A stretch of 63,095 bases of DNA, counting the filler, from Lenisia limosa (lineage: Eukaryota > Protista > Breviatea): the NCBI GenBank assembly GCA_001655205.1. It is 17 parts of 17 records of this genome, joined end to end, with 100 filler letters (N's around TTAATTAATTAA, not from the genome) between each part and the next. Parts side by side here need not be neighbours in the genome. Positions count along the whole stretch, not along the records: positions 1 to 8,003 come from LPNZ01006104.1; positions 8,104 to 10,133 come from LPNZ01004732.1; positions 10,234 to 11,783 come from LPNZ01001246.1; positions 11,884 to 13,135 come from LPNZ01009966.1; positions 13,236 to 15,766 come from LPNZ01003234.1; positions 15,867 to 17,698 come from LPNZ01011110.1; positions 17,799 to 20,017 come from LPNZ01007688.1; positions 20,118 to 22,974 come from LPNZ01010646.1; 9 more parts are not named here. The stretch is one strand, 5' to 3'. How positions within the stretch are numbered: position 1 is the first letter of the stretch; each line of letters starts with the position of its first letter. Both the position numbers and the translations under genes were made by a program. This document shows, piece by piece, positions 1,383 through 63,095 of this stretch. The notes under the pieces were generated by a model, which worked only from the letters and a program-made list of their open reading frames with translations, did no database searches and had not been told where the DNA came from.

Positions 1383-4300
1383 TTAGTCCTCAGGAGGGAC
1401 CTCTCCACCCAGATCAGTGATCGTTGCCTCAAGCACCTCTCTTCGGACCTCCCCTTCCGCAAGATAAACCATCAGCTCCTCCATTTCATTCTATGGGGGG
1501 GGGGGGTAAAAATGGAAAATTTATGCATCACACACAAAAAGAACACAAGGGTGGTTGAATCCAACAACAGCCCAGGCCAATCCCTGAAGCCCCGCATTCC
1601 ATCACTCGTTAAAGGGGCTGGCCTAAATAAAAGAGGGTAGTATGCCTCATGTAGTCATGGCGTTCATATATTGTATAGAAGTAAAGCCCCCACACCTGGA
1701 GAGCCATATGAGCCGCCTTTTCCTCCTTAAGCTCGGCAACGGGGTTACCCTCGGGTGCCGTGCAATTAGCCTGGGGGAGGATGCTTAGAAAGGAAATGGA
1801 AGCGTAAACAACATCAAAACACTCTGTCCTATCAGAGCTCCAATAGTACAATTAGTCTTGCCCCCCCCCCCCCNNNNNNNNNNNNNNNNNNNNNNNNNNN
1901 NNNNNNNNNNNNNNNNNNNNNNNNNNNNNNNNNNNNNNNNNNNNNNNNNNNNNNNNNNNNNNNNTAATCTGGTTAAGGCGGGCTTTGTCGGTGTTATTGG
2001 CCTCCTGAAATGGGTGGTTGGTTGTAAGTAACGCAAGTGATGGTCCTGTTGGTGAAGACTGTTGAGTGTAGACATAATGAGAGTGCTAAAACAAATGTCA
2101 CCCACTTGGTTCTGAGTAATTTGCTGGGAAAGTTCCTTGACCAGCGCAGCGTCGGCTGAGGGCTTCGACTGAAAACGTCAGAAAAAGGAAATATTAGAAA
2201 AGAAAAGTTGTGAGACAGACAGCTTTCAGTTGAGGGGTGAAACAATCCCTCACAAATAGTCTTATCTGCAGGAATGACAACTGTTACCCCCCTCTCCCGC
2301 ACCAGTTCCTCAATTTCGTTGTTCTGGGACTGGATTCTTGATTTAAGCTAAAGTGTCAGATGAAGATTAAGTTAATATGACAGACAGTGATTACAAGAGA
2401 ATGTACATCTGTATAATATACTAGTATAATACATGATATATTAGGAGAGTGTAAACGTGATTAATCCATAAANNNNNNNNNNNNNNNNNNNNNNNNNNNN
2501 NNNNNNNNNNNNNNNNNNNNNNNNNNNNNNNNNNNNNNNNNNNNNNNNNNNNNNNNNNNNNNNNNNNNNNNNNNNNNNNNNNAGCCGTCTCGGCCGCCTC
2601 TGCATCATATCGTGCCCTATGGGGATTAGCTCATTGCAGCCATTCAAGGGGTGATGGTCTGTTTTGGGACTATAGGGAACTATGGAGAGTAGTGAAAGAA
2701 TGTGGATGGATTCAGGAGGCTTACACGAAATACGCTAACAACACTAAATAACACTGCTTCAAGCCAAGCCCTCAGTATTGACCCACCTGTGCTGCTGGAA
2801 GGCCAGGAACTCGGCCGACTGCATCTGAACACTCATTTCCTCAATGGTGGCAGCAAGGCGCTTGTTCTGTGGAGAGTGTTAAAACGAAACTCTGATGAAT
2901 AATACCAGCGGAAAGGTACTACTGACTACTCACTCTGCCGAATAAAAAAAAGTAAAAAAACAAAGATGATTTCCTCATTCGAAATTGTTAAAATAGATAT
3001 GTACCATTTTGGAAGTATTATGATCAAAAAGACTCACAATGAGGAATGTAAAAATTACAAAGAAGAACACGCATCCTACCTCAGCGTCTTTGTTGGCCAG
3101 TTCTTGGTTCAACGCGCTGACGTCTTCTTCGTGCTGCATAGTAAGCAAGGAGGAATTATACTGGTCACTACATTTTGGGCACACTTTTCTTTACATTGGG
3201 CTTTAGTTCGCCTTTTTTTAATACGGTTTCATATGACATTGAATATTACTATATTATACTGTAGCAGTAATATATATCATATTTAGTCGGGGTACAAACC
3301 TGTCGCACCGCTGTTTCAAGAGCGTTTTGAAGAGCCATGAGGGCTTGAGGGGCCTAAAATGTAAGAATACCAAAGCTAATAAACTGGGAGGCAGGGTACC
3401 TCCTCCCCCAAATTACAGTGATAGAACCCTTTCGGAGTTCCCCCCCAAAAAGTAGCAGCCCTTTTCTGAGACAGTGTATCTTGCAATAATGTCCAACCAC
3501 CACCACCAATGCTTACTGCGTTGTTTTCGGGAAGATATCCATTGGAAGATTGCTGGGCCTAAGGGGTGAGAGAAGTGGGGAAGGGGGGTTTCAATTGACA
3601 AACAGTGACCCACTCCCGTCAGAACTGCCATGATAGGTTACGGAATATAGGCTATGCAGAACAAAGCTAAACCCACTTGGTTAACAGGATGATGCACAGG
3701 GGACGGGGTGTAATGCGCATTGGGCAGGGGCTGTGAGAGTCAGACTTGAGTGACATTTGTCAAGCATAATACCAATGACACCAACCATAACAGGCTGTGT
3801 CACTCTGATGGGGTTGTTTTGGGAGGGCTGGTAAGTTTGCTGACTGCCGAAGAGGGAGGGCTAAGGGGTTACGGATTATGGGCTTCAGGTAGTGGATGGT
3901 TGGATACTCTACAACAGCTTACCTTGGGAGTGGAGAAGGGGGACTGCGAATTGGCGGGGCTTGAATTGGACGAAAGAATAGAGGGCTGGAGGGGTATGTC
4001 ATGTGAATATCAAAAGCAAAATATATTTTGTAAATCCTCACTTATCAATAGGTAATGGGGGGGTGGGGGGAAGGACAAAAACAGGTGACGAAAAAACCAA
4101 AAGGTGTACCAAAAAGAATCCTCGCTTGAGGGAGCAATTATTGATTCACCGCCGTCTGGAAAAAGACTGAAACCATTGATAATCCTCGAAAAAGAACAAC
4201 ATTTCCCCTTTTCGGACCAAAATGAAGCCCTTAAGCCATTAATCACTTTCAAAAAGCCTCATCCCCCCACTTCAGGCGTGAGGGCCTCGGGAACCGGACG

Positions 4301-7300
4301 CATCATTGGAGACTGAGTGTTCACAGCAACCTTGGTGGCCTGGGCAGTGGTGGGCGAAGGGGTTTGGCTGGGCGGTAAGGCGTGGCTTGAGTTTCTTTTC
4401 CAGAGACGGAATTTGCAATAAAACAGCAAATAGCTTCAGTTTTTATATTATAGGTTTTAAGAAGAGAAGCTGTTGTAGTCAGAAATATCAAAAAGTGTTT
4501 TTAAAAATCAGCTCCCCATACGGAACAGTTTGGAGGAACATTTGGGGGTTACGTTCGTAGCTCTTGAGGGAGCTTTTCACAGAGTCTGCAAAGGTTAATA
4601 ATATATTATACCTGCTCAGCATCACCCAATGGTATCTCTGACACCTTTAATGGTTTCAAGATCACCATTCATTGTCGCATCATTGTGACGTCTTGAAATA
4701 ACCAATGTTCAGTATCCCATCTTTGACCCCAGATTAAGCGAAATCGGGACGGGTAATTCGGTCGAGGAAGTGAGACGGCACGCCACAGCCCTGCATACCG
4801 ACAGCATCGTTGTAGAAGGACGCAAACGGCGTGTCGAATACAATCGCATCGCGAGAAGAGGCATCCGTGTTTTGTCCCTCTTCAGCTGCGGCAAAAGCCT
4901 GCGGGGTGAGTGGCGTCACTAGAAGGCCTTTACTATCCTGATTATTTTGGAATATGAAGAGCACATAACTCGTATGATTGATGATACGTATGCACCTTTT
5001 GGTCCATTCAGCCCACAGGTTGCCTTCTGAGCTGTTCCATTTTGGAGTACAGGGTCGATATCCCGATTCTCTTCTGAAGGGTGTCCAGGAGCTCTTGTCT
5101 GGAAGGTAATAAGGGTCCTGTTTCTACGAGCTGAAGCGCGAAGTGATATGATCGAAATTGAGACACATTGGGGACAAAGTAGTGTAAAACATCACACGAA
5201 GTTTCATTCAAGAGAAATGATAAACTAAAAAAGAAGATTGGATTTTACCGACGCAGTGAACCCGACGCCCACCTTGCCATAGCCCCTTGATCGGGACCGT
5301 AGATGCAGGCTTCAGCAAGAATGAGGGCCGCAAGACCAGCAATTGTATCGTTCCTTGTGTTAGTGGCTTCCACCATCTTATACGTTATTAATATCGGCAA
5401 AAAACATGCTGTTTTGAGCTGGAAACGCTACAAATTGAAGATAAAATAGAATTATGTCTGATGTACTAAAATCTGAACAAAAAGGCATGCATATCAGCAA
5501 AATAGTATATCAGAAGCAGCCCAGCACCCACGAGGGCCACGGCGTTGTTGGATGTCAGGAGTTGTTCGGCTGCCTGGCGTGACCTTCGAAATCAGGGGAG
5601 GGCGAGGGGGGGGGGGTATCTTTAAAACAAAACCNNNNNNNNNNNNNNNNNNNNNNNNNNNNNNNNGGTTGCGATAATGCGCAAGAGGCCAGCAACAGAG
5701 GCTTCTTGCTGCGTTGAGGCTTGAAGCGTCTTTTGAAGAACTGGTGGGGAATGAGAAAGAGAAAAAACAATGGGATGATCGGAGATTGTAATACCAAAAA
5801 AATCGTCAAGGGATTAATTTAATCCCAAGCTTGTATTGCTTTTGCCTCAGAAACCCTCTAACGGTTAACACAGGTGGGAAGGAGGGTGGCGGTGGGGACG
5901 CCTGGCTCGGGCAAATCAAGGGGAATTCGCAGCATGATCTCCTGGTGCGTAAAAATAAATTGGTGGAGTGTAGCTTATCATAAGAAAGCACATTAAAAAA
6001 GAGGATGTCTCACAATCTATATGACAGAATGATAAATATGGTATTGCATCACTGTGGTGAAGCAATTTGCACATCAATAGAATCACCCGCCAACTTTGCA
6101 CGTGGAGTTGTCCTGTAACACGCCGGCAAAGCCACAACAGGCAAACCTAAACCAGTTGGAAACGAGTAAATTGGCATTGTAGCACAGTAGAAGGGGAGAG
6201 GGGGTGAATCTCTGAAGAAGCTGACCAATTGCTTTCATATCCATGGGTGATATGTTACGACAATATCCGAAGACAAAAAACTTGCAATCCTCCACTACAG
6301 CGTACCATGTGGCAAGTCCATCCGGGTTGGATTCGCATGAACGCACAGTAGCAAGGAGAAGCCTCCCTGTAGAGTGAGGCTTCATTCTTAGTGCTTCATT
6401 TCAATCAGTATTGGAATATCAGATAAGCCCTTTAACACAGTCCACCGTGAAAAGAAGACAAGAAGAGAAACAAACTAAACCCATTTTTCACCTTCACTTG
6501 AATGCGAAACATGTTCATTGTCCTCCATGTCTAAAGGGGTAAGTTTAGGCAGAGAATATAATATCCACGAGCGAAATTTCAATTTCATGGGTATCTGAGA
6601 TCTGAGAAGTACCCAAATAATATATCCCTCTTTTTCGCTTTTTCAGTATATCGAATCTGTGTAATTTAAATCATGAGAAAATAGTCAACTCAAATATTGG
6701 ATTTTCTTCCACCCACCCGGCGAGGGCGTAATGCTTGAAGCCATGCGCATTTGACCCTCGGGGTACTGGTGAAGGAAGGACTGAACCACCGAGGCGGCGG
6801 CGGACCGAAGGCCCAGGTGTTGTGAGTGGATGGTGAACACCGTGGCTCGGCGGAGGGGTGAGCCGACTAATGACTGCAATGGTAAGTGATAATTATCCTC
6901 CAGTTATGATGTCATCTGAACTACACCTTGAAATTTTTTGCTGCATGCAAAGCCCGAAACAGGCATATGTCAAATTAGAATTGAAAAGCGATAAGGCTGA
7001 CAATGCAGAATTATGGTAATACCAGCTTGTTAATATATAAAGACTGACCGCCCATTGCCCACAATTTCACCAAGAACTGACACGCGTCCGGTGGTCTAAA
7101 GGAGTGGGAACATGGGGTAATTATGATAATCTGACTAGCCGTTCATACTGTCAGTTTATAATGTAAGGAGGACAGTTTTCCGAGTAGATGAACGCAGGTA
7201 TCGTTGTATAGTAGAGAGGACACCATAATAACAGACTGAATGTAGATGCTGTGCATCATACACGAATACAATTGTAGAGAGAACACTACCCTTCAGTCCG

Positions 7301-9566: not shown

Positions 9567-10347
9567 CCTAAATCTGTGAAATACAGAAACAAAATGGAAG
9601 AAAAGAAATCGCCAATGCAAGCAAAATCGAGAAAAGTAGGTTGCTTTTTTAAAAAAAAATCTGAATTTCACTCATTTTGAACGTGCTAATACCCCCACCA
9701 ATGTAAAAAATGAGGGGGGGTTGGAAAATTCAAAAAATGAAGAAATTGTAAAAATATTTTTAATTATTGGACCTTTTTTTTTTCCACTTTATGGTTTAAT
9801 TTTCTTTTTTGTTCCATTTCACTCATTTTGAACGTACTAAATTTCTACGTAATCCTGAAAGCCCCAATAAGGTGAAAAGGGGGAGGGGGGCAAAAAAAAA
9901 GACAAATGGGGGGGTTTCGAAAATATAAATTTTTATTTTGACCCCCTATTTTTTAAAATACTAAATATATTTTTCTGACCCAAGATTGGATAGTGTTTTT
10001 TACAAAATCAACAGAATCCCACTTACGTTTGAGTTGCCTTCGTTGTCAGCTCTTGAAATACAGTTACTGTAACACAGTGATAATGTAAAAAAAGGGATAA
10101 AATAAAAAAAAACACAATTAAATAGTCCGGGGTNNNNNNNNNNNNNNNNNNNNNNNNNNNNNNNNNNNNNNNNNNNNTTAATTAATTAANNNNNNNNNNN
10201 NNNNNNNNNNNNNNNNNNNNNNNNNNNNNNNNNTTTCCCTGTCTGTACGCTGGAGTGATGGGATGCGGTGCTGCAGAAGCGACTGGGATATTTTTGTTCC
10301 ATAATTTTACAATTCTTTGTTTCATTTAATGTCCAATTCTAATTTTA

Positions 10348-11783
10348 CCCATAGGATAACGGCCTTCAAAGAAGCGGTTCATGGCAAATTGGCCATTGCT
10401 GGCTTTGACGATGGCGATGTAGCCTTCCTGTCACATACTAAGGTGGGTGGGGACTATGGGGACTATTGGAGGGGGGAGTAAACAAAAACTTTGTGTTGAA
10501 CAGAGGATTCACCTAAGTCAAGTCTCAAAGCAGTGTGCCTACTGGTTGGGCTTGATGGGTGTAATTACTCGTTTTATTTCATCTCTACATATTGTATTAC
10601 AACTAGGGATTCCTTGCGTCCGAAAAAGATCATCATAATATCGATATTTATAGAGAATTTATCGGGAAATTCAGTCTTTTTTGGGACTGTAGGGAAGCCA
10701 TAATTAAAACTGTAGTTTCTTAAACCGTCACATTTCCATCTCTAAATAGTACTTCATTCCGACACAGAAAATGACTGAATTTGTCGATAAATCATCAATA
10801 TATTTCGATCACTGCCTATCTTTTTCGTCTGGAGTGAATTACTAACTCCAAACTAGGGCTTCACACTGGTACGAAAAATATCAAGGATTGATCGAGGTCT
10901 ATTGATATTTATCGAGGGTTTATCGAGAATCCAGTCTTAGTTTTTGTATTCAAAAGGAAGCCATACTTCAAACCCGCTCCATTCTAACAATGCAGCGGAG
11001 TAACGGATCCCGGCAAATGACCGTGCTAAACAGACACGCTGGTAGGATGGTGTATTCTGACTCTGTGCAATTGGAATTATTGACATATAATTGAAAATCA
11101 CTGTCTGAAAAGGATGTCGTGTAACCTAGGTTCAAGTTCTCATTCTTTGCTTTGATTATCATTATCCAAAACAGTATGACATCCCCCCCCCCCCGCNNNN
11201 NNNNNNNNNNNNNNNNNNNNNNNNNNNNNNNNNNNNNNNNNNNNNNNNNNNNNNNNNNNNNNNNNNNNNNNNNNNNNNNTCTATTGTTTCCAAAACTGTC
11301 ATTTCACTTGTTTTGTTGTTATCATCGTGTGTGTTTTCAGCCAACAGAGTTGATTTGGCTTTTTTTTTATCAATTTTCTAATTTTACTCTCCTCCCATAG
11401 CTCACCAATCATCCATATCCTGTGTGGCCTTGTCCACTAACTGGTCGACTGCTGTCACCGGTGACTTTGACGGAAGAGTGGGTGGGGTATTAGGGGGTAC
11501 TCTTGGATGGGCGAGAAGTAACACCAATCCCCTTCCATAAAAGGCAGTTATTATCACCTCCCTTCTATTTTAGGCAAGTAACAGCGCTTGTCTTCCATAT
11601 AAGGCATTTAGTATGACCTACCTTCTATATAAGGCAATTAACAATGCAGGTGGTCACGTGGGACCTCCATACCTTCCGCCCGATCCTGGAGCTAGCGCAT
11701 CTTCCGTCGGTCATCAGCGGAATTACCATTGGCAGGGAAAATGGCCAAGTCTACGTATCAGCCGGACCTGAGGTGCGGGGGGG
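10348..11783 (+). CDS. C-terminal WD40 region of a BEACH-domain protein (WDFY3/LYST-like), partial
   Basis: Phase-compatible exons give ...AIAGFDDGDVAF...RHAAHQSSISCVALSTNWSTAVTGDFDGRVVTWDLHTFRPILELAHLPSVISGITIGRENGQVYVSAG. This resembles the GHxxxVTC...SGSxDxTCIIWDL...TGDI pattern of BEACH proteins. Confidence 0.6.
10604..10965. mobile_element. Two diverged H1 MITE copies (10604-10702, 10854-10965)
   Basis: TAGGG termini and conserved ATCGATATTT core; TSDs ATTACAAC/ATTAAAAC and CTCCAAAC/CTTCAAAC. Further copies near 15532, 15942, 20541, 26202, 38157, 39809, 40759, 59186 and 62330. Confidence 0.8.
11331..11400 (+). repeat. Splice-acceptor-associated repeat module (representative copy)
   Basis: CAGCCAACAGAGTTGATTTGGCTTTT...AATTTTCTAATTTTACTCTCCTCCCATAG directly abuts a coding exon. 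About 15 related copies lie in other introns. Confidence 0.85.
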
Positions 11784-12384
11784 NNNNNNNNNNNNNNNNN
11801 NNNNNNNNNNNNNNNNNNNNNNNNNNNTTAATTAATTAANNNNNNNNNNNNNNNNNNNNNNNNNNNNNNNNNNNNNNNNNNNNTTGGAGATCCCCCGTCT
11901 CACCCCTGTACAACCTAAGCTATGCGATGCGGTGCTGCAAGCGACTGGCCGGCTTTGTTTTGTTGTTTTGTCAGCCAACAGAGTTGATTTTGTTTTTTTT
12001 GTTTCATAATTTTCCTAATTTTACACCCCCCACCCAGGAAGATATCAAAAAAATAAAAAAAATGCATAGGGTAGGAGGTATTTTTATGTTCCTTCTTTCC
12101 CTCTTGGAACCTCCCCCCCCCCCCNNNNNNNNNNNNNNNNNNNNNNNNNNNNNNNNNNNNNNNNNNNNNNNNNNNNNNNNNNNNNNNNNNNNNNNNNNNN
12201 NNNNNNNNNNNNNNNNNNNNNNNNNNNNNNNNNNNNNNNNNNNNNNNNNNNNNNNNNNNNNNNNNNNNNNNNNNNNNNNNNNNNNNNNNNNNNNNNNNNN
12301 NNNNNNNNNNNNNNNNNNNNNNAAATAAAGCCCAAAATCAACTCTGTTGGCAAAACATTGAAAAAAAACAAAACAAAACAAAAA

Positions 12385-15300
12385 ACACGCGGAAATGGAA
12401 AAGTTGAATGGTGGCAGTGTGGGGGATGAAGCGGATAATAAATATGTACAAATTGAAGTCGCCTCTTCCTCTATAAGTGCACACTGACCACGAAAAGCCC
12501 TGACACGGATTGTGTTTTATCTTTAGTCAATCGTGTCAGGACTCCGGTCACAGTGTGTAGAATTAATGATTTGTTTTGCTTTTGCTTGTAATATTCCTCA
12601 AGTACACAGTCCCTCATATTATTTAATGTTCCTACAATAACTATTGTTAAGTTACCGATTTTTTAAAACTGTTTCATGACTATCCAATTTCACTCCAATG
12701 TGCTAATTCCCCAAACCCCAAACCCACCTCCACATCTTCGCTCAGCTCCTCCTCTACAACAGCTTCCTCAGGCTCCTGGAGGCGTAAATATGGAAAATGT
12801 TGGGGGAGGGGGTACAACAAAGTCTCTATTTAAACAAGGACTTTGGAGATTAAGTCTCTATTGCAACATGGATCATTAAGATCAGGGGAGGGGCGAGGAG
12901 TAAAATTTGATAAAACACAAACTCAACTCAGTGGCTAAACCTTTAGGAACCACAAGAGAGTTCGTCGAATGACAATAGAACAGCAAAACGAAAACTCTCT
13001 CTAAATAACTCCAACCATCATGTGCTCAAAACAATACTGTGACCGGGATTAGTCTTGACCGATTTGTTATGTGATTTCCCAAGGAAAATCGGTCAAGACT
13101 TCACGGTCACAGTACATGAGCTTTTACTTGCTCCGNNNNNNNNNNNNNNNNNNNNNNNNNNNNNNNNNNNNNNNNNNNNTTAATTAATTAANNNNNNNNN
13201 NNNNNNNNNNNNNNNNNNNNNNNNNNNNNNNNNNNCGAAAATGCACTTGTCCTTTTCAGCGGTATGGAACCCGAAGGGGTTTGAATGGCCTGGGGGGGTG
13301 GGGGTGGGGTGTATAAACTTGGGGATTTAACAGAGGGTTAAAACGGTCTAGCGGTTATTCAGAAGTTGTGCGTGTGTGTGTGGGTAAACTTGGAAAAGAT
13401 TCCTTCCACCCTACCAAGAGGTCTCTGCTTGCATTTCCTATTTGAAGCATCGGGGGAGTCATCTGCAGGGGTAAAATAACAAGAAAAAAGAAAGATCGTG
13501 CATTCAGGATGCTGTTTAAGGTATATCTGGGGGGATAAATTTGGTCCAACCGAAGCTATTAGGTATATTATTACCCCCCCCCCACACAAATAACGTCTCT
13601 GTTTCCCCAATTAACTCGTTTCTATACCCCCAAACAGGTAGTGGTATTAACGTCTCTCAACCCCCCAACAAGTAGTGGTATTAACGTCTCTGTACCCCCC
13701 AACAAGTAATGGTATTAACTCGTCTCTGGCGATTCCGGCCAAACGTGAGCCACGACCTGATCCCCTGGTTGCTAGTGGCCAAATGTTGGTCTTCCTGGAG
13801 GAGGTCTAGTGGTCTGGGGAGGTTTGTGAGGCGAAGGGAAGGGGAATTTCTAGTGGTCTTGGGGAGTAGAAATGGAAAAAAAATAATCAACTAAACTACT
13901 ACTCCCCCCCCCACAAAGCTTTTGGCCGCAAACGGACTTGAACAATTGGCGCTCGAGTGGATAAAATATCGTCAAGGTCCTCATATCTAATGGGTGAGGA
14001 ATACAATAATACAATCAAGATTCTCGGATGTATTGGCATTTATTACTTAAACCAATTGTGGATAAGATCTTTGTATTTACATATACAGTGACCGGGATAA
14101 GTCTTGACCGATTTGTAAAATTTTCAAGGAAAATACGTCAAGACTCTCCCGGTCTCTGTGGAAAAGTATGTTAAGTTACTCGTATTTATATATGATATGA
14201 TGTGGGTCAAAATAAAAGTACTAGTGTGTATTGGTTTTGGAAACATATCGCTTTTTCGGGTCACATGTGGGAACTAACATTTTACACATGGTGACATGAC
14301 CTCATATCCACTCGTGTGAAAACTGACCGACAAGTCTCAATGATACTCTGATACACTCGGGATAAATCATCATGTTATTCGTTCATCATTTCGACTCGAA
14401 ATTTGGAAATCATTTCACTAGCTTATGGATATGGGTCAACATATCACAATTCACAAAGTGATAGTGTTATAAACTTCTAATTGTCTTGAGACGCCTCTGA
14501 TTGGCGTCTCAAGCTGGGTTAAATAAAACGTCCATTGTATGCATCTTCAAAGTCCCCCCCCCCCCAACAAATNNNNNNNNNNNNNNNNNNNNNNNNNNNN
14601 NNNNNNNNNNNNNNNNNNNNNNNNNNNNNNNNNNNTCCTGCAATGGGGGTATGTTGCGAGTACCTCCCGTGGACTGCACGTGACTCCAGGGTTTCCTATG
14701 GTGGTAAGGAGGGAAATTGGGACTACCTGCAAAACAAAACTGACAATAACAATTACTTGAAAGAGTTTCAATAGCCCCCTCACCTTCCCTCCATATTACT
14801 CATAATATTAATTAACAATAAAAGGTGCCATTGCCATTGTGTAGCAGGGCGAAGTATGGGGTGTTACTTGCTCCCAAAAATAAAAGCAATATAGATAAAT
14901 CGATAGAAAACAAAAGAGAAAGGTTGGAAATAATGTTGTTAGTTAATGGGGAGAAATATGTGAGAGAGAAGAAAAGAAATTGGCGAATATTTGATACAAG
15001 AAACAGTATCAGAGTACTGACTGAAGAGCTTGGTTTGGTCCTAAGAACAATCATTTTTTCAGACAACTGATTATGTTACCTATGCTTTAGTGGATTCTGT
15101 GGGGTCCTCTTCCCACGCTGACGGTCAGGTTATGTTTAAATATTGATATCACTTTGTCCTTGTTCTTCGTTTTAACTTGTAGGATTCACAAAGTATGTTT
15201 GCATTACGTTACCAATGTAGCACCGTCGTTTTCTATATCGAAGCTCGAGATGTTCACCGCCGCTGTTTCTGGCGATAAATTATAGTTTGTTCAATTTGAT

Positions 15301-17814: not shown

Positions 17815-19298
17815 AGTCACAATAAAGCCTGCATGATCATCGTCAGTCGTCACCATTCCGACTGTTGATGTATACGTCTCACGACGGGCGGTTGTTGCCT
17901 GAGGGTTAGAATAGAGCCAAAATGGAGGGTTACAATTTGGGCACCTTGCAATTAATTGCCGCAATTATGGCAATTAATGTTGAATTAATTGCCCTAGTTA
18001 GAATAGAGACAAAATGGAGGGTCTAAAACGTTTTGAATTGGATGTTTTGCAGACAGGTCTCTCTTCCCCCCTTACGAAAACGAGTAATTCTTTTTTTTTT
18101 GTTTTTACCAAGAATCAGCTGGAAAATAGCTCCCCCCCCCCTCCCCATAAATAGTGACATTTTATTGGTTTCCAGAACTCTGGTCAAATTTAACAAATTT
18201 TAATACCCCCGTTACAGTGAACGTGACAATAAATGATTGATCTCCATCTTCATAATCATCGTCCACTCCTGCCACCTGTACTGGTAAGGGGGAAGTAGAG
18301 GAACGTGCATTTTGATATACTATCACTTAGAGACAAATAAACCATAACGAACAGAGACAGGAGTGAAATGATACGGACAATACCACCTATTGAACTGTCA
18401 CCCAGAAAACGCCCACATACATGAACAAGTTGGCACACATCGGCGTCGTCAGACTCAAGAGTAACTTGCTCCTCAAGCACAATTCCCTCACCCGTGTCAC
18501 TGGACGCTGTGTTTACTACAACCTAAACAGGAATTACGCCATGACTTGTAACAAACTGAGGAAGNNNNNNNNNNNNNNNNNNNNNNNNNNNNNNNNNNNN
18601 NNNNNNNNNNNNNNNNNNNNNNNNNNNNNNNNNNNNNNNNNNNNNNNNNNNNNNNNNNNNNNNAGCGATGATGGCAGCGTCGCCATTCTGCTCAGCAATA
18701 TGGTTGGAGGGCCAGCCGGGGGATGTCACGAAGGGAGACTGGGGGGAGTAAAACGAAGGAACTTTCGATGAAGAATGTGATAATGGATAACAGACCCCAC
18801 AGTGACACTATCATCGTCAAGACGGAACCCCCCCCCCCCCNNNNNNNNNNNNNNNNNNNNNNNNNNNNNNNNNNNNNNNNNNNNNNNNNNNNNNNNNNNN
18901 NNNNNNNNNNNNNNNNNNNNNNNNNNNNNNNNNNNNNNNNNNNNNNNNNNNNNNNNNNNNNNNNNNNNNNNNNNNNNNNNNNNNNGCTGTCGGAACCGCG
19001 AAATACACCGCATCCGTACTAGCGGTAACTGTGTGTCGTACCTCTTGCCATATGGGGCCTGTGGCGGAGGCATCGTCAATTGCCTAATATGGTAAGTGCG
19101 GCCATTTATCGCCTTCCGTATATAGAAAACATCAGGATTTATTTGCCAATAACGCCCCCAATAAGCACGCACCTGAAGGGTGACGTCCTTCGGGATATTC
19201 CAGTCGCTGGCGTCGAAGGAGAGCGATGAGGGCGACACGTCAGCTTGGTCTGCCGGGAATGTCGTAAGAGACACCTGGGGGTGTGAGGTGAGTAAAAT

Positions 19299-19350
<52 letters not shown>

Positions 19351-19870: not shown

Positions 19871-20117
19871 CTATCGGGGTAAGATGGGAGAAATCTGTAT
19901 ATATATATATGATATGTACACGCACAGTGCCCAGGATAAGTTGTGACCGATTTGCTATGTGATTCCCAAAGGAAAATAGGTCAAGACTTATCCCGGTCAC
20001 TGTACATATCATATGAANNNNNNNNNNNNNNNNNNNNNNNNNNNNNNNNNNNNNNNNNNNNTTAATTAATTAANNNNNNNNNNNNNNNNNNNNNNNNNNN
20101 NNNNNNNNNNNNNNNNN

Positions 20118-20939: not shown

Positions 20940-22758
20940 ACGCACCTTGCAAGCTACGGATGCGTCGGGTTTCAAAGTATGCAGCTGGAAGCCGACTATT
21001 CCTCCGTCCGCGGCCCCAACCAATCTACCCCGAAACTGGCAGTGACGCTCGTTTTCTTACTATGGGCGGTGTTCCACCTGCGATACTCCGCAGCTATTAT
21101 GCCTGTCACCACCGCCATGATTGCGATTTGGGCTTCTTGTCTNNNNNNNNNNNNNNNNNNNNNNNNNNNNNNNNNNNNNNNNNNNNNNNNNNNNNNNNNN
21201 NNNNNNNNNNNNNNNNNNNNNTAAGTCTTGACCGATTTTCCTTGGAAATTCAGATAGCAAATCGGCCAAAACCTATCCCGGTCACTGCACATGAGTCAAT
21301 TAATGCATTTTGAACTTTTTAAATAGTATACAGTGAAGTCTTGACCGATTTGCTGTGATATACAGTGACTAGGATCATTCTTGACCGATTTGCTATTTGA
21401 TTTCCCAAGGAATATCGGTCAAGACTTCTCCTGGTCACAGTGTATAATGTGTATATATAGTACATCTATATTGATCTTTTATTGTTGAAAATAAACCTCG
21501 CACACCCTACAGATTAAATAGCAATTTTTTCCGAACGTCAAATATTTGGCCGGCGGTTGGAGAGAATTGTCACGGATATCCGAACATCAACTTTCGGTGA
21601 CGTCATATTTTTATTATGAAACTCAGAATTGTTGTTCTCTTATCTCAATAATAACTACTTTTAATACACTAAATCTCAATCACGCAAGTTACGCTCGTTT
21701 TCAGATATTTTTGTTCTTCGACCGAGCCAGGTTCTCCAACCGCAACCTGCTTTAAGCATTGACAAAAACCCCACTCACTCCTTTCCACCATTATTTTCAC
21801 CAGTGATGGGAAGCGACTAGCCTGGGTTTTGTTTGTTTTGTTGTTNNNNNNNNNNNNNNNNNNNNNNNNNNNNNNNNNNNNNNNNNNNNNNNNNNNNNNN
21901 NNNNNNNNNNNNNNNNNNNNNNNNNNNNNNNNNNNNNNNNNNNTTTCATAAATTTTCCTCTTTCACTCCCCCTCCCAGAAGCGAGTGGCCTAGGCTTTGT
22001 TTGTTTTATGTTTTCTCAACCCTCGTGTGTTGATTTCGGGCTTTTTTGTTTCATATAATCCAATTGTACCAACAGAGTTGGCCTTTTTTTGTTTCATAAA
22101 TTTTCAATTTTACCCCCCCCCCCCCNNNNNNNNNNNNNNNNNNNNNNNNNNNNNNNNNNNNNNNNNNNNNNNNNNNNNNNNNNNNNNNNNNNNNNNNNNN
22201 NNNNNNTCCTCGCGATACTCTTCCCCGTCGTCATCCTCCCTGTCCTGTTCTACTCATACTTAACCCTGGCTGACGATGGGCATCTTGTCTTCACAGAGGC
22301 GCATGAATTGGGTGACAGGGCTTCCCTTTATGGAAACTTCCCTTTCTGGAAACGTCCTTATGGAAGATTATAGTTTATTAGCAACTACCATATGCTTGAT
22401 ATATATACTCTCTGTTGTTGGATACCCCTTTATTTACGTTAAAGTTACCTTTAGAAAAAGAGTGAATTCTCGATATATACTTTTCAGGTGTCTCGGAAAC
22501 GAAAGTGAAGCTCTAGTTACCTTTTATGGAAGGTTGTATTTCCTACTTTTCTTGGAACCCTCTCAATACATTTTATGGAACCTTCCCTCTTTGGAACCTT
22601 CCTTTTATAGAAACTTCCTTTTACGGCTTAGTCACGGCCGAATCGAGCTTGATCACGGTGTGCCTCCTGACCTATTTTCTCCCGTACCGCATTAACCAGA
22701 CCATTTACATTATAACGCTCATTGGCGTCACGTTTGTGCTCTTTGCTTTTAGCGCCAA
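20940..22758 (+). CDS. Multi-pass membrane protein fragments, unknown family
   Basis: Hydrophobic exons: KLAVTLVFLLWAVFHLRYSAAIMPVTTAMIAIWASC; LAILFPVVILPVLFYSYLTL; LITVCLLTYFLPYRINQTIYIITLIGVTFVLFAFS. Confidence 0.55.
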
Positions 22759-22889: not shown

Positions 22890-23074
22890 TTTCCAACCCA
22901 CGTTTTCATCAGCCAACAGTGTTGATTTAGGGCTTTTTTTTCTTAAATTGTCCAATTTCACTCCCCCCCCCCCCNNNNNNNNNNNNNNNNNNNNNNNNNN
23001 NNNNNNNNNNNNNNNNNNTTAATTAATTAANNNNNNNNNNNNNNNNNNNNNNNNNNNNNNNNNNNNNNNNNNNN

Positions 23075-41512: not shown

Positions 41513-44500
41513 CACAGTGTTTCGCCATCAGCAGCAGTAGCAAGATGGGTTCGTTCAATCCCGTCAGCAAATCGAATTGCACTGTCACATACTCCGCGAC
41601 ATGCAGTGAGTACGGCGGTAGTCTGGGGGTGGGTGGATATATTAGTCTTGGGGTGAGTAAGTGAGGGGTGGTGGTGGTAAACTCTTTGTTAAGGCAACCA
41701 GGCATGATCAAAGCAAATCAATGTTAATACAATTTAACGCAAAGAGTACGAGAAAGCAACCAATGCTTCCAATCGTTCGCCTACTTTGGGGTGAAGCAAC
41801 GCTGTGTCCCGCAGTCGCTTGCAATACACATCATGAGCTGCGGAGATATCGTCAACCTTTAGGGTGAGAATGAGCAAGGGTAAAAATTAAGCTAGAATGT
41901 CATTTTTTTTTTCTCTTGCCCGCAAATTAGGATATTCAGTATTTTTTACGTTTTAGTGCTATGCGTGGGGNNNNNNNNNNNNNNNNNNNNNNNNNNNNNN
42001 NNNNNNNNNNNNNNNNNNNNNNNNNNNNNNNNNNNNNNNNNNNNNNNNNNNNNNNNNNNNNNNNNNNNNNNNNNNNNNNNNNNNNNNNNNNNNNNNNNNN
42101 NCAAAAAAAAAGCAAGAGAAAAAAATGACAAGATTTTTGCCCGTCTTCTGCTCTTGTTGTTAATATAAGATCTATGCCCGTCTTCTGCTCTTGTTGTTAA
42201 TATAAGAGCATCAAGGGATAAGAACACCCTCCAGCCAGCACTCTCCAGCCAACACTTGTATTGTCAGCGTTGAGAGTTGCAAGAAGAATGTCGAAACCGC
42301 AGTCAGAGAGCTGGGAGAGTAAATTTGGAAAAAATAAAGGAATTATAACTCAAATTCGAAAGTTAGCCCCCCCCCCCCCACAGCGTTATTGAAANNNNNN
42401 NNNNNNNNNNNNNNNNNNNNNNNNNNNNNNNNNNNNNNNNNNNNNNNNNNNNNNNNNNNNNNNNNNNNNNNGCGTTTCGTGTAAAGGACAGCTTCTTCAT
42501 AAGCTGTTCGTGGCCTGGCATGCGGAATCTAAGGGGGGGGGGGGAAGTGAGAAAGGAAAACTCAAAATCAACTTTATAGACTAAATATTAAAGGAGAAAA
42601 TAGAATTAGAGTCTGGAATAGTTCGTTGTATGTTCTTCTTATCAAAAATTAATTTCCCAATCAAGTAGTATAATTTAAGTATTTCTTGAATTATGGTATT
42701 GATAAGATTTCACCTCCACAGCTGATAATAAATACAAACCTTGGTTTAGACACGATATAGTTGGCTCTGTGTAGCATTTGAAGAAGCGAAAATACCCTGT
42801 ATGATGACATCCAGAAGAGCTAGCTTCAACAAATCTAGTTTAAAAGAAACTAAAAGACCCTATTAACATCAAAAAACAAACAAAAACTAAAAACAAAGAG
42901 CATTGAGCGTTGTATTCTTGTTTATAGCCGTAAGCTGTCTCACCTAGAGTAGACCTCGAGTTGATGGGGGCGAATCACGGCCGAAAGCGGCCATTGAACG
43001 TTGGCAGATAGAACCAAGGCATTGGTGACTGAGGACTGGGGGATGATGATGATAGTGGGAGGATATAATGGGGGGGGGGTGCNNNNNNNNNNNNNNNNNN
43101 NNNNNNNNNNNNNNNNNNNNNNNNNNTTAATTAATTAANNNNNNNNNNNNNNNNNNNNNNNNNNNNNNNNNNNNNNNNNNNNGACTGTACACAAAGGTAT
43201 TCTTACTACGTATATATCTTGAACACATGTATTAGACATGTACAGTGACCAGGATAAGTTGCTATGTGATATACAGTGACCGAGATAAGTCTTGACCAAT
43301 TTGCTGTTTTCCCAAGAAAAAGCGGTTATGACTTATTCCGGTCACTGTATATAATATGAAAGCAGCACAAAGTAGCAAATGATTGGGTGCATTGACTCAC
43401 AAAAGTTGGGTGAAATGCCATCTTGACTGAATAAATATACTATAATCCAATAGCGTGATGATGTGGACGGCTTCGGCCAGATACTATCATCCAATATCTC
43501 TTAAAAACGTGATTGTGTGGATGGCTTCAACCAAAACCTTGTTTTTTTTGTATTTCTCATCGCTGGATAAATCAATATCGTCAACACCGATATCATATCA
43601 TCTTGGATTATTTCTCTTCTCCTCCATACATATACGCGTGACGGTTTGGTAGGCGCAGATACAACCTTGTTTATATTTCTCATTTCTACATAATGTACTC
43701 CGCTCACTCTTCTAAAGACGCATTTTTGGGGGCCGGAAGCGGAGTGGTTGGTTCGTTTTCATAGAGGGGTGGTGCCGACGGCTCAATCATATCAGGACTG
43801 GGAGGGGGGGGGGGTAAAATTGGAAAACTTATTAAAAAAAAGCCCTCTGTTGGCTGCCAGCATNNNNNNNNNNNNNNNNNNNNNNNNNNNNNNNNNNNNN
43901 NNNNNNNNNNNNNNNNNNNNNNNNNNNNNNNNNNNNNNNNNNNNNNNNNNNNNNNNNNNNNNNNNNNNNNNNNNNNNNNNNNNNNNNNNNNNNNNNNNNN
44001 NNNNNNNNNNNNNNNNNNNNNNNNNNNNNNNNNNNNTGAATAAAAGAAGGTTGTCAGATTAAGCTGTCTTTTCTCACCTTGTTGTGCCCCTAGTCAGCGC
44101 TCCAGAAGGCTTGGGTGGGGGTGACGACATTGGGGTTTCGGGTTGCTGAACCTGGGAAAACAATGAGCGAAATGTTCATACAGTGATCGGGATAAGTCTA
44201 GACCGATTTACTTTGTGATTTCCCAAGGAAAATAGGTCAAGACTTATCCTGGTCACTGTATGTAGTCCAGATTTTGGTTTAAAAAGCAGCAGTCAGCGAA
44301 CGAGATTATCAGTATAATTTAAACACAATACAGCTCATCTAAAAAGGGGGTGGCAGCGTCTGTAGTAAAACAATAAAAAGTGATAAAAGTGGTATTTTTT
44401 ATGAACAAAAGTTTTTCGAAAGAGACACCCCATTTTTTTTACCTACAACCAACCTGGTTTTTCTCATACTACCTACCCTCCCCCTACAAAAACAAAACAT

Positions 44501-47446
44501 CCAAAAAAAAACTCCCGTTCACCCAACAAAAGAAATAAAAAATACCCCCCCCCCCCTCACAGTAGGTTTTTCTCTTGGAGAGGGCGACTCATTGGGCAGG
44601 GGTGTTGGAGCCCTACTTGGGTAAATAATCACAAAGAGTAGACAAAATGAATTGCGACGGTTGAAGAGCTAATATTTCCCCTTATTTGGCATTTTTTTGA
44701 AGAAATTGAAAAGAATTATTCAACAAGTATCGGCTGAGAAGAGAAATTGGTTAGACATACACATTATTTGGCTGAGAAGAGAAATTACAACATCAGGTTG
44801 AGAAATAAAATTGGTTAGACACACAACAAGCAAAACCCCCCACTGCATAGAAGCGAGGCCGAACGGAGAAGTGGCGTTTAGTCCGTTTGAGGGTTTGAGC
44901 GGTGTGGAGTGCGAAGCTCTTTGGGGGCCTTGGGAGTGAGAAATACAGTGGGAGTAAATGATAGGATTTGGAGAGAGGGGGGGGGGGGAGNNNNNNNNNN
45001 NNNNNNNNNNNNNNNNNNNNNNNNNNNNNNNNNNNNNNNNNNNNNNNNNNNNNNNNNNNNNNNNNNNNNNNNNNNNNNNNNNNNNNNNNNAATAATTGTT
45101 CGTTAAGACATTTTAACTATATTTTTTTTATTTTTATATTTTTTATTTTTTATTTTTTTTCATCTCTATAGTATATCAGAATAATGGTGAAAGCAATGCA
45201 TTTGATATAAACAGTTAAAATGTCTTAATGACGAACAATCAAGAAGAAAGTAACTGTTTATGGTATCCCCATGTATATATATTTGTTTCCACATTTTTCT
45301 AATGTATATCATTTCTCTTTTTTCAAAAAGTATATCATACTTCAAATGTGACTTCATATCAAATCCAACCTGTGCACGCAGCTATGGAGGTTTTTAGAGG
45401 ACTAACAAAATGGATAAGAGTGGGGTGTTATATATAGCAATGGGAAATAGGTTGTATCTGGCCGAAGTCGTCCAAACCTGTGCACGCAGCCATTATGATA
45501 CTCAGAATAATGGTTGCGTTTGACGAGGATGCTGAGCCAAGGGCACTCCAAATGCTCTGAACAACCTCGGGAATATCGGGACTGAGGGGAGTGAGTGAAA
45601 TTGAAAAAAAAAGAAGCAAAAAGCCCGACTCAAAAGGCAAAAAGCCCGACTCACCTCTGGTATGCAGGTTTTTAAGAGAGAGAGAGAGAAAAAAGGGAGT
45701 ATGGGGGGGGGGGGGNNNNNNNNNNNNNNNNNNNNNNNNNNNNNNNNNNNNNNNNNNNNNNNNNNNNNNNNNNNNNNNNNNNNNNNNNNNNNNNNNNNNN
45801 NNNNNNNNNNNNATGGGGGGAAATTGAGTTTCTGTGTATGGTATTATTTTACGAAAGGATTTGGAATTTATTTTATTGTATGTTTTTGGCGAGGGGTGCA
45901 GATTGAAATTGTTCGAAGATCATCAAGAAAATCCCCACATATTCGATTGACAAACAGACACTTTGTCCTCAAACCTGTATTTGGCCGAAATGTTGATCAT
46001 GTCATAAACAATAGCCTGTTGAGAAAACCGTGTGATTTTGGACAGGTCTACAGCTGAGGCAACGGCAGCCATGAGAATGAGAAGGGAGCGTCTTTCTAAT
46101 TTTGAGTTAAAATACGGGGGAAGTGGGTTTGGAAATGCGGGTGAAGATTGTGCACTTCCTATGGTCCCCCTTACGGACCGCTAAGAACGCGAATTGCATC
46201 AAGACGGCCGAACATTTCTGTCAGGAAAAGCGCGCCAAAATGTGGGCGTTCGGAGGAAATGCGGTGTGCTACTGAGGAAACACCCTAAGAGGTCAGCGTA
46301 AAGGTGCGTAAAATGGGAAAATTTATGAAACAAAAAAAAAAGCCGAAAATGCTGGGAAGACACGAGGGTTGAGAACAACAAAACAAACAAAACAAACANN
46401 NNNNNNNNNNNNNNNNNNNNNNNNNNNNNNNNNNNNNNNNNNNNNNNNNNNNNNNNNNNNNNNNNNNNNNNNNNNNNNNNNNNNNNNNNNNNNNNNNNNN
46501 NNNNNNNNNGGGGTGAGTAATAATCAGTTTCATTGTTATGTTTTGATCTGTTTAATAAATGTCCTGTTAACAAACCTCGCGATGACCCCCCTTCCCCTTT
46601 ATTCAGCAAACATCCTCCTCAAACCTCGCGATAAGCCTCCCTCAGAGTCGAAGTCAGAGGCACAGTGTAGTGGAACGATGCAGTGGGCCGTGACTGCGGG
46701 AGGCTCTGAACAGTAAAAATTGATTGTTGGCTCTGGAACAGTAAGAAATGTTTCCAGTCACTTCGGTTCGGTTTAGGGGGGCACTTCTCAATAGAACTGA
46801 AGTTATATGTCTTGACCAACCTGGGTAGCGAACGTCTGTTTTGCACCCTCATTGTTCGGCGTTCTTGGATTCTGAGTTAACTGAAGGGGAACAGTAGGGG
46901 CTTCTTCGAACGCAGCTCCTATGGGTGTTACAGATATAGCAATCCACACCATCACGTTTATAAGAGATATTGGTATTACAGTGTCCAGGATAAGTCTTGA
47001 CCGATTTGCTATGTGATTTCCCAAGGAAAATAGGCCAAGACTTATACCGGGTATATAGATAAGAGCATGGCGCCATTTCGTTAATGACAGTTTACTAAAA
47101 CCAAGTCCTTAAGATACTACTCTTTATTGAAATCATATTGAGCAAATAAAGAATAAAAATACCACGAAATATTACTGATTCGAGAGAAAATAACATAAGT
47201 GAAAAAAAAACAAAACAAGATGGTTTGTATCTTGACGAAGCCATCCACACCATCCTGTGCACACAGCTTTCNNNNNNNNNNNNNNNNNNNNNNNNNNNNN
47301 NNNNNNNNNNNNNNNNNNNNNNNNNNNNNNNNNNNNNNNNNNNNNNNNNNNNNNNNNNNNNNNNNNNNNNNNNNNNNNNNNNNNNNNNNNNNNNNNNNNN
47401 NNNACCAGAAACATTGAGAAGAGACAGAGCGGCTTGCCTCACAGCC
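41513..47446 (-). CDS. Gamma-tubulin complex component (Spc97/Spc98 family), GCP6-like layout with long Pro-rich insertion
   Basis: N-terminal AVRQAALSLLNVSG; Pro/Ser-rich middle exons; GRIP2-like NALVLSANVQWPLSAVIRPHQLEVYSR and VDDISAAHDVYCKRLRDTALLHPK. Confidence 0.7.
44181..44258. mobile_element. 78-bp Tc1/mariner-type MITE (family T1)
   Basis: TA|CAGTGA(C/T)CGGGATAAGTCT...AAGACTTATCC(C/T)GGTCACTG|TA. Other copies at 13037-13112, 14086-14158, 19925-20002, 21222-21444, 23470-23541, 43243-43347, 46979-47050 and 47540-47567. Confidence 0.88.
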
Positions 47447-60681: not shown

Positions 60682-60931
60682 NNNNNNNNNNNNNNNNNNN
60701 NNNNNNNNNNNNNNNNNNNNNNNNNTTAATTAATTAANNNNNNNNNNNNNNNNNNNNNNNNNNNNNNNNNNNNNNNNNNNNGGGGGGGGGGGGGTAAAAT
60801 TGGAAAATTTATGAAACGAAAAAAACCGCAACTCTGTAAGACGAAGGAAATTAGGGTGAGAAGACAGGTATTATACGTATGATAGATTTATATTACATCT
60901 ACCCCGTTTTATTGTGGCTAGCACCACATAC

Positions 60932-62842
60932 CACGAGCTTGAGAGCGGAAAGGACTTGTTTCTCAGCCTCGCGATGGAGTCCGATGTTGTAGTAGGCCTT
61001 ACCTAGCATGAACTTCCACCACCAGTCTTTGTACCTGAAGAGAGGGGGGGGGGGAGTGAAATGAAGGAAACTTCGATGGTAAATCTANNNNNNNNNNNNN
61101 NNNNNNNNNNNNNNNNNNNNNNNNNNNNNNNNNNNNNNNNNNNNNNNNNNNNNNNNNNNNNNNNNNNNNNNNNNNNNNNNNNNNNNNNNNNNNNNNNNNN
61201 NNNNNNNNNNNNNNNNNNNNNNNNNNNNNNNNNNNNNNNNNNNNNNNNGAAAAGGAGGGTTAGCTGAAAAATGGAGGCTGTAATCGATATTTATTTATAG
61301 CAAACATGAACTTTCACCACCAATCCTTGTACCTGACAAGGAGGTTAAATCAAATTTTGAAGGTTTTTTTTTGGGTTATTGCCTTTTTGGAGTTAAAAAC
61401 ATAATATATTTGAGGAATATACATACATGTATACGGCTATTGTACACTGCCATATTGTCTACGTATTGCAATTTTCACTCATATAGCCTCTGCTAGTCAC
61501 ATTCCAGGCCATTTTTAGAATTTTCATGTCTGAACTGTTTATATGAAAAACTACCCTCAGCAAAAAAAAAAAAAAAAAAANNNNNNNNNNNNNNNNNNNN
61601 NNNNNNNNNNNNNNNNNNNNNNNNNNNNNNNNNNNNNNNNNNNNNNNNNNNNNNNNNNNNNNNNNNNNNNNNNNNNNNNNNNNNNNNNNNNNNNNNNNNN
61701 NNNNNNNNNNNNNNNNNNNNNNNNNNNNNNNNNNNNNNNNNNNNNNNNNNNNNNNNNNNNNNNNNNNNNNNNNNNNNNNNNNNNNNNNNNNNNNNNNNNN
61801 NNNNNNNNNNNNNNNNNNNNNNNNNNNNNNNNNNNNNNNNNNNNNNNNNNNNNNNNNNNNNNNNNNNNTTCGGTAACATACATACGAACAGGGTATACTC
61901 GAAGACTGCTCGGGCGACAGCCGGGGAGGAAATCACCTAGGCAAAATAAGCTTGGGGGAAGGCGGGAGTAAAACGAAGGAAATATTGATGAAGAATATTG
62001 GCGTAAAGGNNNNNNNNNNNNNNNNNNNNNNNNNNNNNNNNNNNNNNNNNNNNNNNNNNNNNNNNNNNNNNNNNNNNNNNNNNNNNNNNNNNNNNNNNNN
62101 NNNNNNNNNNNNNNNNNNNNNNNNNNNNNNNNNNNNNNNNNNNNNNNNNNNNNNNNNNNNNNNNNNNNNNNNNNNNNNNNNNNNNNNNNNNNNNNNNNNN
62201 NNNNNNNNNNNNNNNNNNNNNNNNNNNNNNNNNNNNNNNNNNNNNNNNNNNNNNNNNNNNNNNNNNNNNNNNNNNNNNNNNNNNNNNNNNNCTGAGGGAG
62301 GGATGAACGGGTGAAAAGGTTTAATAATAGCTGGGGATTCTTCCAAAAGACCGCGAAAATATCGATATTTATCGAGGATTTATCGAAGATTCATTCCTAT
62401 TTGGAACCGAAAGTAAAGCGATAGGACTCCCCCTCCCCCCTCACCTTAGCAAGAACCAGCCTTTCGGGGTCAATAAAGGCGTCACTCGAGCCCGAGGCCA
62501 TTATGGACGCCGTACCAACACGCACAAATCTACGAAAAAAACGTGAATTTAAACAACCTGGATATTAAACGCCGTACACACCCGCACAAATCTAGGACGT
62601 ATTATAGAATATAAATCTTGGCCCAAAATGGGCCAAAAGACCACTGTTATACCAAAGTTCAAACTAGGGCTCTGAAATTAATTGTTTGAGGAAATACGAA
62701 ATTAAGTCTAAAAAGAGGTTCTCGTTACAATATGTCCACTTCAAATTTTGAAAATATTTTTATCAACTAATTGCACGGAGCCCTAGTTCAACCCCCTACC
62801 TGCCGGACGACGTGACGGGACGAGAGGTTCCCGGCCGCATTC
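60932..62842 (-). CDS. TTC8: BBSome subunit BBS8/TTC8, partial
   Basis: RPGTSRPVTSSGR; VGTASIMASGSSDAFIDPERL; PAVARAVFEYTLF; YKDWWWKFMLGKAYYNIGLHREAEKQVLSALK, the diagnostic BBS8 segment. Confidence 0.9.
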
Positions 62843-63095
62843 NNNNNNNNNNNNNNNNNNNNNNNNNNNNNNNNNNNNNNNNNNNNNNNNNNNNNNNNNN
62901 NNNNNNNNNNNNNNNNNNNNNNNNNNNNNNNNNNNNNNNNNNNNNNNNNNNNNNNNNNNNNNNTAATCACGAACCGAATAATCTGAAATTCAATGGGGTT
63001 AAAACGAAGGAAATTGTACTGAAAAATTTCTGAAACAAAACTCTGTTGGCTAACAACACACGAGGGTTGATGGTAAAACGAAGGAAATTTCGATG

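Follow-up and report, generated by a model that had tools for sequence, protein, structure and literature searches.

A high-copy module carrying predicted branch points at intron 3' ends in Lenisia limosa, possibly copied between existing introns

In the genome of Lenisia limosa, a microbial eukaryote with high intron density, introns of unrelated genes end in copies of one repeat, here called the module. It is 40-110 bases long and forms the last part of about one intron in ten. The module is a mosaic cassette whose 3' end is fixed at a predicted branch point and poly-C run and whose upstream end is ragged. Since the copies share this 3' part while the rest of their host introns is unrelated, they appear to have been copied into existing introns and not to have created them. 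We tentatively propose that the module spreads by copying from one intron end into another existing intron, with the poly-C run as anchor.

Sequence and evidence used

The window, meaning the whole stretch of 63,095 nucleotides analysed here, consists of about 17 L. limosa scaffolds joined through N spacers, so features on the two sides of a spacer are possibly not adjacent. RNA evidence came from assembled contigs of poly-A sequencing in the same study, run X2 included, and DNA abundance from contigs of DNA run X1. The acceptor list is our own curation, made partly with knowledge of the module. Gene labels were checked by Pfam search of exons, and the GCP and WD40 labels also against the PDB with single exons.

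The module recurs at acceptors far beyond chance

The initial annotation had cited 13 copies, and the described sequence was present in all 13 intervals. A 15-base core matched the window six times (0.14 expected) and a 23-base 3' block eight times (0.00 expected), and in neither case was the count reached in any of 100 shuffles. Table 1 adds plus-strand copies at 10262-10354 and 21811-21978, together with weaker ones. The 13-base end block matched 21 times against 2.6 expected: 10 of the 21 matches had the sense orientation and preceded a curated acceptor (from a list partly informed by the module) by no more than 25 nt, five ran through poly-C into an assembly gap, two were antisense just downstream of RNA-supported donors, and four had other settings. 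The available assembly is interrupted at its C/G runs. Away from intron ends, the window held a few weak matches only.

Table 1. Positions of module copies, reversed fragments and family B blocks in the window
Position	Strand	Feature	Remark
1491-1541	-	Short copy, 3' block and C-run, at end of last USO1 intron (predicted 1695-1491, 205 nt)	
10262-10354	+	Diverged long copy with upstream block, before predicted WD40-like exon	Extra copy; acceptor predicted
11308-11400	+	Full copy at predicted acceptor; branch-point-like motif immediately upstream of copy start	
11939-12037	+	Full copy with upstream block, maybe antisense to RNA-supported minus-strand gene of same scaffold	
12323-12382	-	Copy forming 3' part of intron of at least 405 nt starting at 12727	RNA contig
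12667-12700	+	Reversed 3'-block fragment, about 30 nt past donor 12727	
16068	+	Weaker additional copy	
19304	-	Weaker additional copy	
21811-22125	+	Three stacked copies: first ends with AG at 21978, second starts at 21979, truncated third at 22069	
22902-22974	+	Copy immediately downstream of MITE; C-run enters gap	
23144-23269	+	Ankyrin-gene intron at repeat boundary: 30-nt G/A-rich start (weak reversed fragment), full module from 23173	
38986-39067	-	Copy at acceptor of DNPEP intron 39363-38986 (378 nt including 228-N gap)	RNA-confirmed acceptor
39332-39361	+	Reversed 3'-block fragment, 5' end of DNPEP intron 39363-38986	
39564-39607	-	3' block at DNPEP acceptor	RNA-confirmed acceptor
42331	-	Weaker additional copy	
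43798-43856	-	Copy at predicted acceptor, intron 44078-43798, putative GCP gene	
45607	-	Weaker additional copy	
46285-46391	-	Copy followed by more branch-point-like motifs in place of C-run	Predicted acceptor 46285
60782-60852	-	BBS8 intron end: family B block fused at its branch-point position to truncated module copy	
62983-63095	-	BBS8-region chimera: family B block, module core, family B block, AG	
18739-18776	-	Family B, second acceptor-pinned block	Also 62003-61968 and 61078-61056; 6 matches vs 0.2 shuffled

Run X1 contained thousands of module look-alikes, a figure to be read as an order of magnitude only. Over the copy at 11950, depth summed across X1 contigs, which does not equal copy number, was 351, 45,950, 181,325 and 39,827 in four consecutive 31-base bins, whereas single-copy DNA had about 30. 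X1 contigs leaving the core followed a consensus through the 3' block and poly-C, and past the C-run their agreement dropped to 0.39-0.40. One short RNA contig carried the core, at an expression level that contigs cannot show. The exact gapped module pattern gave no match in metagenome and viral contigs. Together, the end-block positions, the RNA-confirmed DNPEP acceptors described below and the X1 abundance bear out the initial annotation's picture of a high-copy repeat pinned to acceptors in gene sense. The orientation holds wherever the host strand was identified; the copy at 11950-12037 is possibly antisense.

Host genes and RNA support

A DNPEP RNA contig (record 10, run X2) joins exons 39564-39473, 39413-39362, 38983-38922, 38719-38638 and 38380-38269, and the copies at 39564-39607 and 38988-39070 therefore end at used acceptors. 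Beyond DNPEP's own exons, RNA support for module introns comprised two acceptors and one donor only. The DNPEP and USO1 labels agree with matches to Peptidase_M18 and Uso1_p115_C, both under the Pfam curated cut-off; the latter match lies in the exon following module intron 1695-1491. Protein P0001 and its homologues supported the BBS8 label, while single exons gave neither Pfam nor convincing PDB support for GCP, nor for a WD40 label read by eye near 11308.

RNA also bore on a proposed GT donor at 12385, from which the module was thought to make up a whole intron. This was refuted: the intron starts at 12727, and an RNA contig spans 12727-12777 and then enters an exon that the window lacks. 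RNA contigs did not cover 11915-11950 and 12038-12070 and are neutral as to exons there. The plus-strand copies at 11308 and 10262 were also considered as reversed copies at minus-strand donors; we rejected this because the plus-strand exon chains score 47 against 6.

The module is a mosaic ending in an ordinary splice signal

The copies resemble one another through the branch point and C-run, to about 25 nt or less from the AG, and the final bases before the AG vary. That the module carries a branch point and pyrimidine tract was borne out at the level of predicted signals. YTNAC lay within 40 nt of the AG at 57 of 82 module-free acceptors (median 10 nt) compared with 13 of 78 control windows; the end of the module thus matches the usual splice signal of this genome. 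The same motif stood at the upstream junction in 4 of 15 scorable copies and in 21 of 398 intron-interior windows (p = 0.009, a post hoc test on small numbers), and junction letters in X1 resembled those at the upstream junctions of the window copies. Tandem joints occurred in the window and, at 36-62 bases, in X1; the truncated third copy of the stack at 22069 begins right after the branch-point position of the second. Family B blocks are joined to the module in the chimeric copies of the BBS8 region. The longer upstream block is probably not a repeated micro-exon, as two of its copies differ by a 2-base deletion.

A fixed 3' end with truncated 5' ends could also arise from a non-autonomous SINE-like retroelement, or from reverse-transcribed intron ends, primed at C-runs. 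The ragged 5' end, strong sense bias and stacking would suit such an element, as would the longer upstream block in four window copies. We nevertheless consider it rather improbable. Rfam searches up to E = 1 gave no match at any module copy (the longest copies being possibly still truncated), and hence no recognisable tRNA or other RNA head; no target-site duplication was seen around the copies; and the family consists of exchangeable blocks in mosaic, not nested truncations from one master. Nor was a reverse transcriptase recognised in the general exon prediction across the window. In the same Rfam searches, weak microRNA-family matches appeared at MITE hairpins only.

Selection offers another account, in which the module is an extended splice signal held by snRNA pairing, or by a factor for longer introns, without ongoing copying. 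Its position is fixed to the branch point, and module introns with both ends known (n = 4, 205-378 nt, three including estimated gap lengths) were longer than 54 others (median 146, p = 0.002), in line with this account and, for the lengths, also with copying into existing introns. Against it, 83 of the 91 acceptors in our list have no module, among them every one of the 28 in the copper-ATPase gene; stacks and chimeras require copying; and nine module sequences showed no shared or consistent fold (z from -2.39 to +1.22). We therefore give selection little credence.

Host introns are unrelated upstream and one is apparently older

The initial annotation had suggested that the module creates introns, in the manner of introners. 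The evidence lent this little support: similarity extends to the 3' splice boundary side and stops short of the 5' boundary, the whole-intron case fails, no terminal inverted repeat or target-site duplication of introner quality was found, and one host intron is older than its copy. Between 60 and 12 nt before the AG, six copies scored 31.1 against 12.1, whereas the donors of eight module introns were no more alike (mean pair score 11.0, 28 pairs) than those of 78 others (11.5, 2628 pairs; p = 0.88). A better fit is the alternative named by the initial annotation itself: a repeat that targets introns, or a splice signal that has been homogenised.

The older intron lies in an ankyrin gene whose exons each hold one repeat; four of six scanned exons are single Pfam ankyrin repeats and exon ends are 25-47% identical as DNA. 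The exon preceding the module intron aligns to the same repeat boundary, and the module occupies one of seven scorable introns, all at the same repeat position. Because this position is common to the other introns, the intron is older than the module copy. Among BBS8 orthologues, at loci mostly intron-poor or represented by transcripts, 23 of 80 had candidate introns, with none near the module intron and one matching a module-free intron.

A decayed inverted-repeat introner would reconcile some of these observations: a DNA element with G-run and C-run arms would have made whole introns, of which the 3' arm with its branch point was kept, whereas the 5' arm was lost to decay or covered by subsequent insertions. 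In a post hoc gapped test for reversed 3'-block fragments near the donor, eight module introns scored above 72 others (p = 0.0007), and the top two scores both fell in module introns. Such fragments occur near two to three of eight module donors: two lie 9 and 34 nt past RNA-supported donors, and a weaker one lies at 23148. The ungapped version of this test, a profile search that omitted one donor and had one training row shifted, detected nothing. The module makes up most of a few short candidate introns (23144-23269, and the putative 45653-45582 and 13914-13858), and exons before module donors end in AG in 5 of 8 cases against 26 of 78 others (p = 0.13). In the part of a recent survey concerned with classified introners, about 82% are inverted-repeat DNA transposons (PMC12130899). 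However, five of eight donors have no arm, the 5' ends are not mutually similar, no intron-spanning terminal inverted repeat was found in nine regions, the bases between C-run and AG differ among copies, and module introns vary from about 130 to more than 400 nt. With the older ankyrin position, these points make a decayed introner unlikely in our view. Were the module the surviving arm of an old introner, it would show asymmetric decay of introner-derived introns into ordinary ones, the point still open in the view that most introns originated as introners.

A proposed route of copying into existing introns

Our preferred reading, copying between existing introns, could begin with a break or stalled fork in a long C/G homopolymer that leaves a G-run end. 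This end would anneal to the C-run of another intron, 20-150 bases upstream of that C-run would be copied, and rejoining would occur at or just past the old branch point. The recipient intron would retain its own donor and AG and acquire another branch-point region. Since the most abundant template would also be the one most frequently copied, one family could take over, and copies would be tolerated because their end has the same YTNAC-pyrimidine-AG layout as ordinary introns here. Both the enzyme and the intermediate of this route are hypothetical. Some observations weigh against it. The reversed fragments near module donors are more simply explained by an element with inverted ends; a DNA process anchored on C/G runs should give reversed copies after long donor G-runs, but these are rare and short; and several long C-runs at acceptors carry no module.

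More speculatively, the module may be a selfish splice-signal cassette whose branch-point region, anchored by poly-C, overwrote the 3' ends of thousands of existing introns without transposase signature or intron gain. It would be a case of concerted splice-signal evolution, with a second family competing and recombining at the same place. If so, splice signals could be homogenised and replaced genome-wide by copying, without intron gain or selection at each site.

Comparison with known systems

Antisense Alu elements in existing introns supply a pyrimidine tract and acceptor; they insert widely and make new exons at cryptic sites. The module resembles them as a repeat inside existing introns that gives 3' splice signals, but it sits at constitutive acceptors and is nearly confined to intron ends in the window. 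In templated insertion during microhomology-mediated repair (polymerase theta, MMBIR), short tracts are copied from elsewhere, joined by microhomology and sometimes stacked. By analogy, the short tracts, putative microhomology joints and stacking of the module could reflect a related process; to our knowledge, templated insertion leaves dispersed mutational scars and has not been described as generating a single splice-signal family with thousands of copies.

With introners, as described in the sections of two surveys drawn on here (Gozashti et al. 2022, PMC9860276; Gozashti et al. 2025, PMC12130899), the module shares a high copy number, a splice signal, sense orientation and a location within introns of genes unrelated to one another, in a microbial eukaryote rich in introns. 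It differs in that its similarity is confined to the acceptor side, the sequence around its AG varies and one of its host introns is older than the copy. According to the same sections, these surveys accept a family only if its similarity extends to the two splice boundaries, and they discard insertions made secondarily in introns already present; a repeat like the module, a one-boundary family, would thus be invisible to them. A limited literature search found no account of a comparable repeat restricted to acceptors. Fungal introner-like elements are, in the portions of Collemare et al. 2013 (PMC3609843) considered here, near-identical whole introns with stable predicted folds. They too form many related, decay-prone copies that carry a branch point and pyrimidine tract and exceed ordinary introns in length, whereas module copies share a 3' part only and have no consistent fold. 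Those portions also set aside repeats inserted within regular introns, and this is the closer category for the module.

An acceptor-pinned repeat family

All 13 module copies listed in the initial annotation were recovered from the window (13/13), where the core gave six matches against 0.14 expected and the 3' block eight against 0.00 expected. Members of the family are mosaics of several blocks. An upstream block, present in four of the window copies, is followed by a T/G-rich block, either or both of two core blocks, and a T-rich block whose last bases are TTTTAC, TTTCAC or TTTGAC; then comes a C-run, separated from the AG by a few, variable bases. When contigs of X1, a DNA run of the same organism, were mapped at 80% likeness, 1,990 fell on 11884–12800. 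Summed X1 depth across the module was 351, 45,950, 181,325 and 39,827, with single-copy DNA at about 30, and the more diverged or shorter module copies in DNPEP reached about 10,000 against 23–34. Although summed depth does not measure copy number, we take these values to mean that look-alikes number in the thousands. Such abundance agrees with the 13–18 module copies in 56 kb of window. X1 contigs leaving the core followed a consensus path through the 3' block to the end of the poly-C, beyond which they diverged. The exact module pattern had no match in metagenome and viral collections. The module family at intron 3' ends is real, and it is both abundant and unusual. Two abundant MITE families also lie inside introns, in either orientation, with 10+8 and 9+5 core matches, and the first reaches an X1 summed depth of up to 337,000.

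Position and orientation at splice acceptors

The window of 63,095 bases, 6,918 of them N, comprises about 17 scaffolds with a fixed spacer between them; the organism is an intron-dense eukaryote, with short exons and GT-AG introns whose donors are G-rich and acceptors C-rich. Long G-runs often follow donors and long C-runs often precede acceptors throughout. Many internal gaps adjoin C or G homopolymers, and repeat-bearing intron ends are therefore under-represented in the assembly. A self-trained exon predictor combined with our own curation yielded 91 acceptors and 85 donors. Eleven acceptors scored at least 35 against other copies (eight module, two second family, one low-complexity match), and the module was found at 0 of the 28 acceptors of the copper-ATPase gene. 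Contigs of the RNA run X2 confirmed five DNPEP exons and therefore two module acceptors. On the scaffold at 11884–13135, an RNA contig spans 12727–12777 and then runs into sequence outside the window, so that an intron 405 nt or more in length ends with the minus-strand copy at 12382–12323; position 12385, previously proposed as the donor of an intron made up of the module, is unused in this RNA-supported transcript. Should the minus-strand gene extend across the gap at 12125–12322, the plus-strand copy at 11950 would be antisense within it.

Features of the window associated with intron ends and host genes
Feature	Position	Strand	Remarks
Second family block	18739–18776	minus	
Second family block	60836–60852	minus	
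Second family block	61035–61078	minus	
Second family block	61937–62003	minus	
Second family block	63073–63095	minus	
MITE, example	38417–38518		
MITE, example	13034–13118		
Candidate intron	13858–13914	minus	57 nt; ends complementary over ~9 bases; module-like middle; readable as intron on either strand
Possible intron	45582–45653	minus	72–73 nt; mostly module T-rich block; internal duplication; putative donor
Degenerate duplicate of BBS8 exon start	61281–61334	minus	has stop codon; ~300 nt upstream of intact exon
Ankyrin gene	23075–26141	plus	one repeat per exon; phase-0 introns at repeat boundary

Junctions and a possible route of spread

A YTNAC motif lies about 10 nt before the exon in 57 of 82 ordinary introns, against 13 of 78 controls. 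The module end is the normal predicted branch point of such introns, which would explain why a copy does no harm, or is of use, only in sense orientation on the acceptor side. Stacking of copies occurs, with tandem joints of 36–62 bases in X1, and junctions often directly follow an earlier branch-point motif or AG (22069, 60837, 63072, 11308 and 21979); a strict motif stood at 4/15 junctions against 21/398 intron-interior windows, a post hoc comparison (p = 0.009). A second block, pinned to acceptors like the module, occurs six times against 0.2 expected in shuffled sequence and forms chimeras with it, fused at the branch-point position. We infer that one intron end is copied into another, with the C-run as anchor. 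The simplest route would be template switching, a general mechanism, during repair at the homopolymer. Reverse transcription primed at the same C-run would be expected to leave similar anatomy, but Rfam matched no RNA head in the module.

Other evidence weighs against this reading. Two RNA-supported donors, each belonging to a module intron, are followed after 9 and 34 nt by reversed 3'-block fragments. An earlier ungapped test for such fragments was negative, but flawed; when scored with gaps across the initial 70 nt, the eight module donors exceeded 72 others (p = 0.0007), in a test designed after seeing the two cases. This post hoc pattern fits the trace of an old element whose ends were inverted, copying by fold-back between one intron's own G-run and C-run, or selection for pairing of intron ends.

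Relation to introners

Introners are defined, in PMC9860276 and PMC12130899, by similarity that extends to the splice boundary at either end of the intron, and secondary insertions are removed by filtering. Over the first 40 nt, likeness was 11.0 for eight module introns and 11.5 for 78 others (p = 0.88), against 31.1 and 12.1 in the 3' region. The module thus fails the test that defines introners, similarity at both ends rather than one, and its initial reading as an intron-creating introner for the most part lacks support. No inverted repeat spanning the intron was present in the nine regions examined.

Four of six scanned exons of the ankyrin gene are single Pfam ankyrin repeats. The exon preceding its module intron stops at the repeat boundary used by the others; exon ends are 25–47% identical, and the module is present in one of seven scorable introns, the end of the eighth falling in a gap. 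A recent intron-creating element would need to strike the exact boundary that other repeats already use, which argues that an existing intron received the copy or had it refreshed.

The BBS8 fragment matched one near-identical record (P0001), and its other matches, including oomycete, mammal, foraminiferan and dinoflagellate proteins, were only about 45–51% identical, leaving no close relative for comparison. In a set of 80 BBS8 loci made up mostly of transcripts or loci poor in introns, 23 had candidate introns, none of the 80 having one near the module intron (about residue 245 of P0008, a BBS8 protein record); one lay near residue 148, a module-free position. Metagenome loci L014–L018, L021, L035, L036 and L048 have candidate introns in common, close to residues 38 and 62 of P0008.

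No acceptor-only family of this kind is described in the literature searched, including passages of PMC11282704 and PMC12730881; supplements of introner surveys may bear on the screening of this genome. From the fungal introner-like elements, as presented in PMC3609843, the module differs in structure, the nine folded module sequences having no shared fold. It behaves like a repeat providing existing introns with splice signals.
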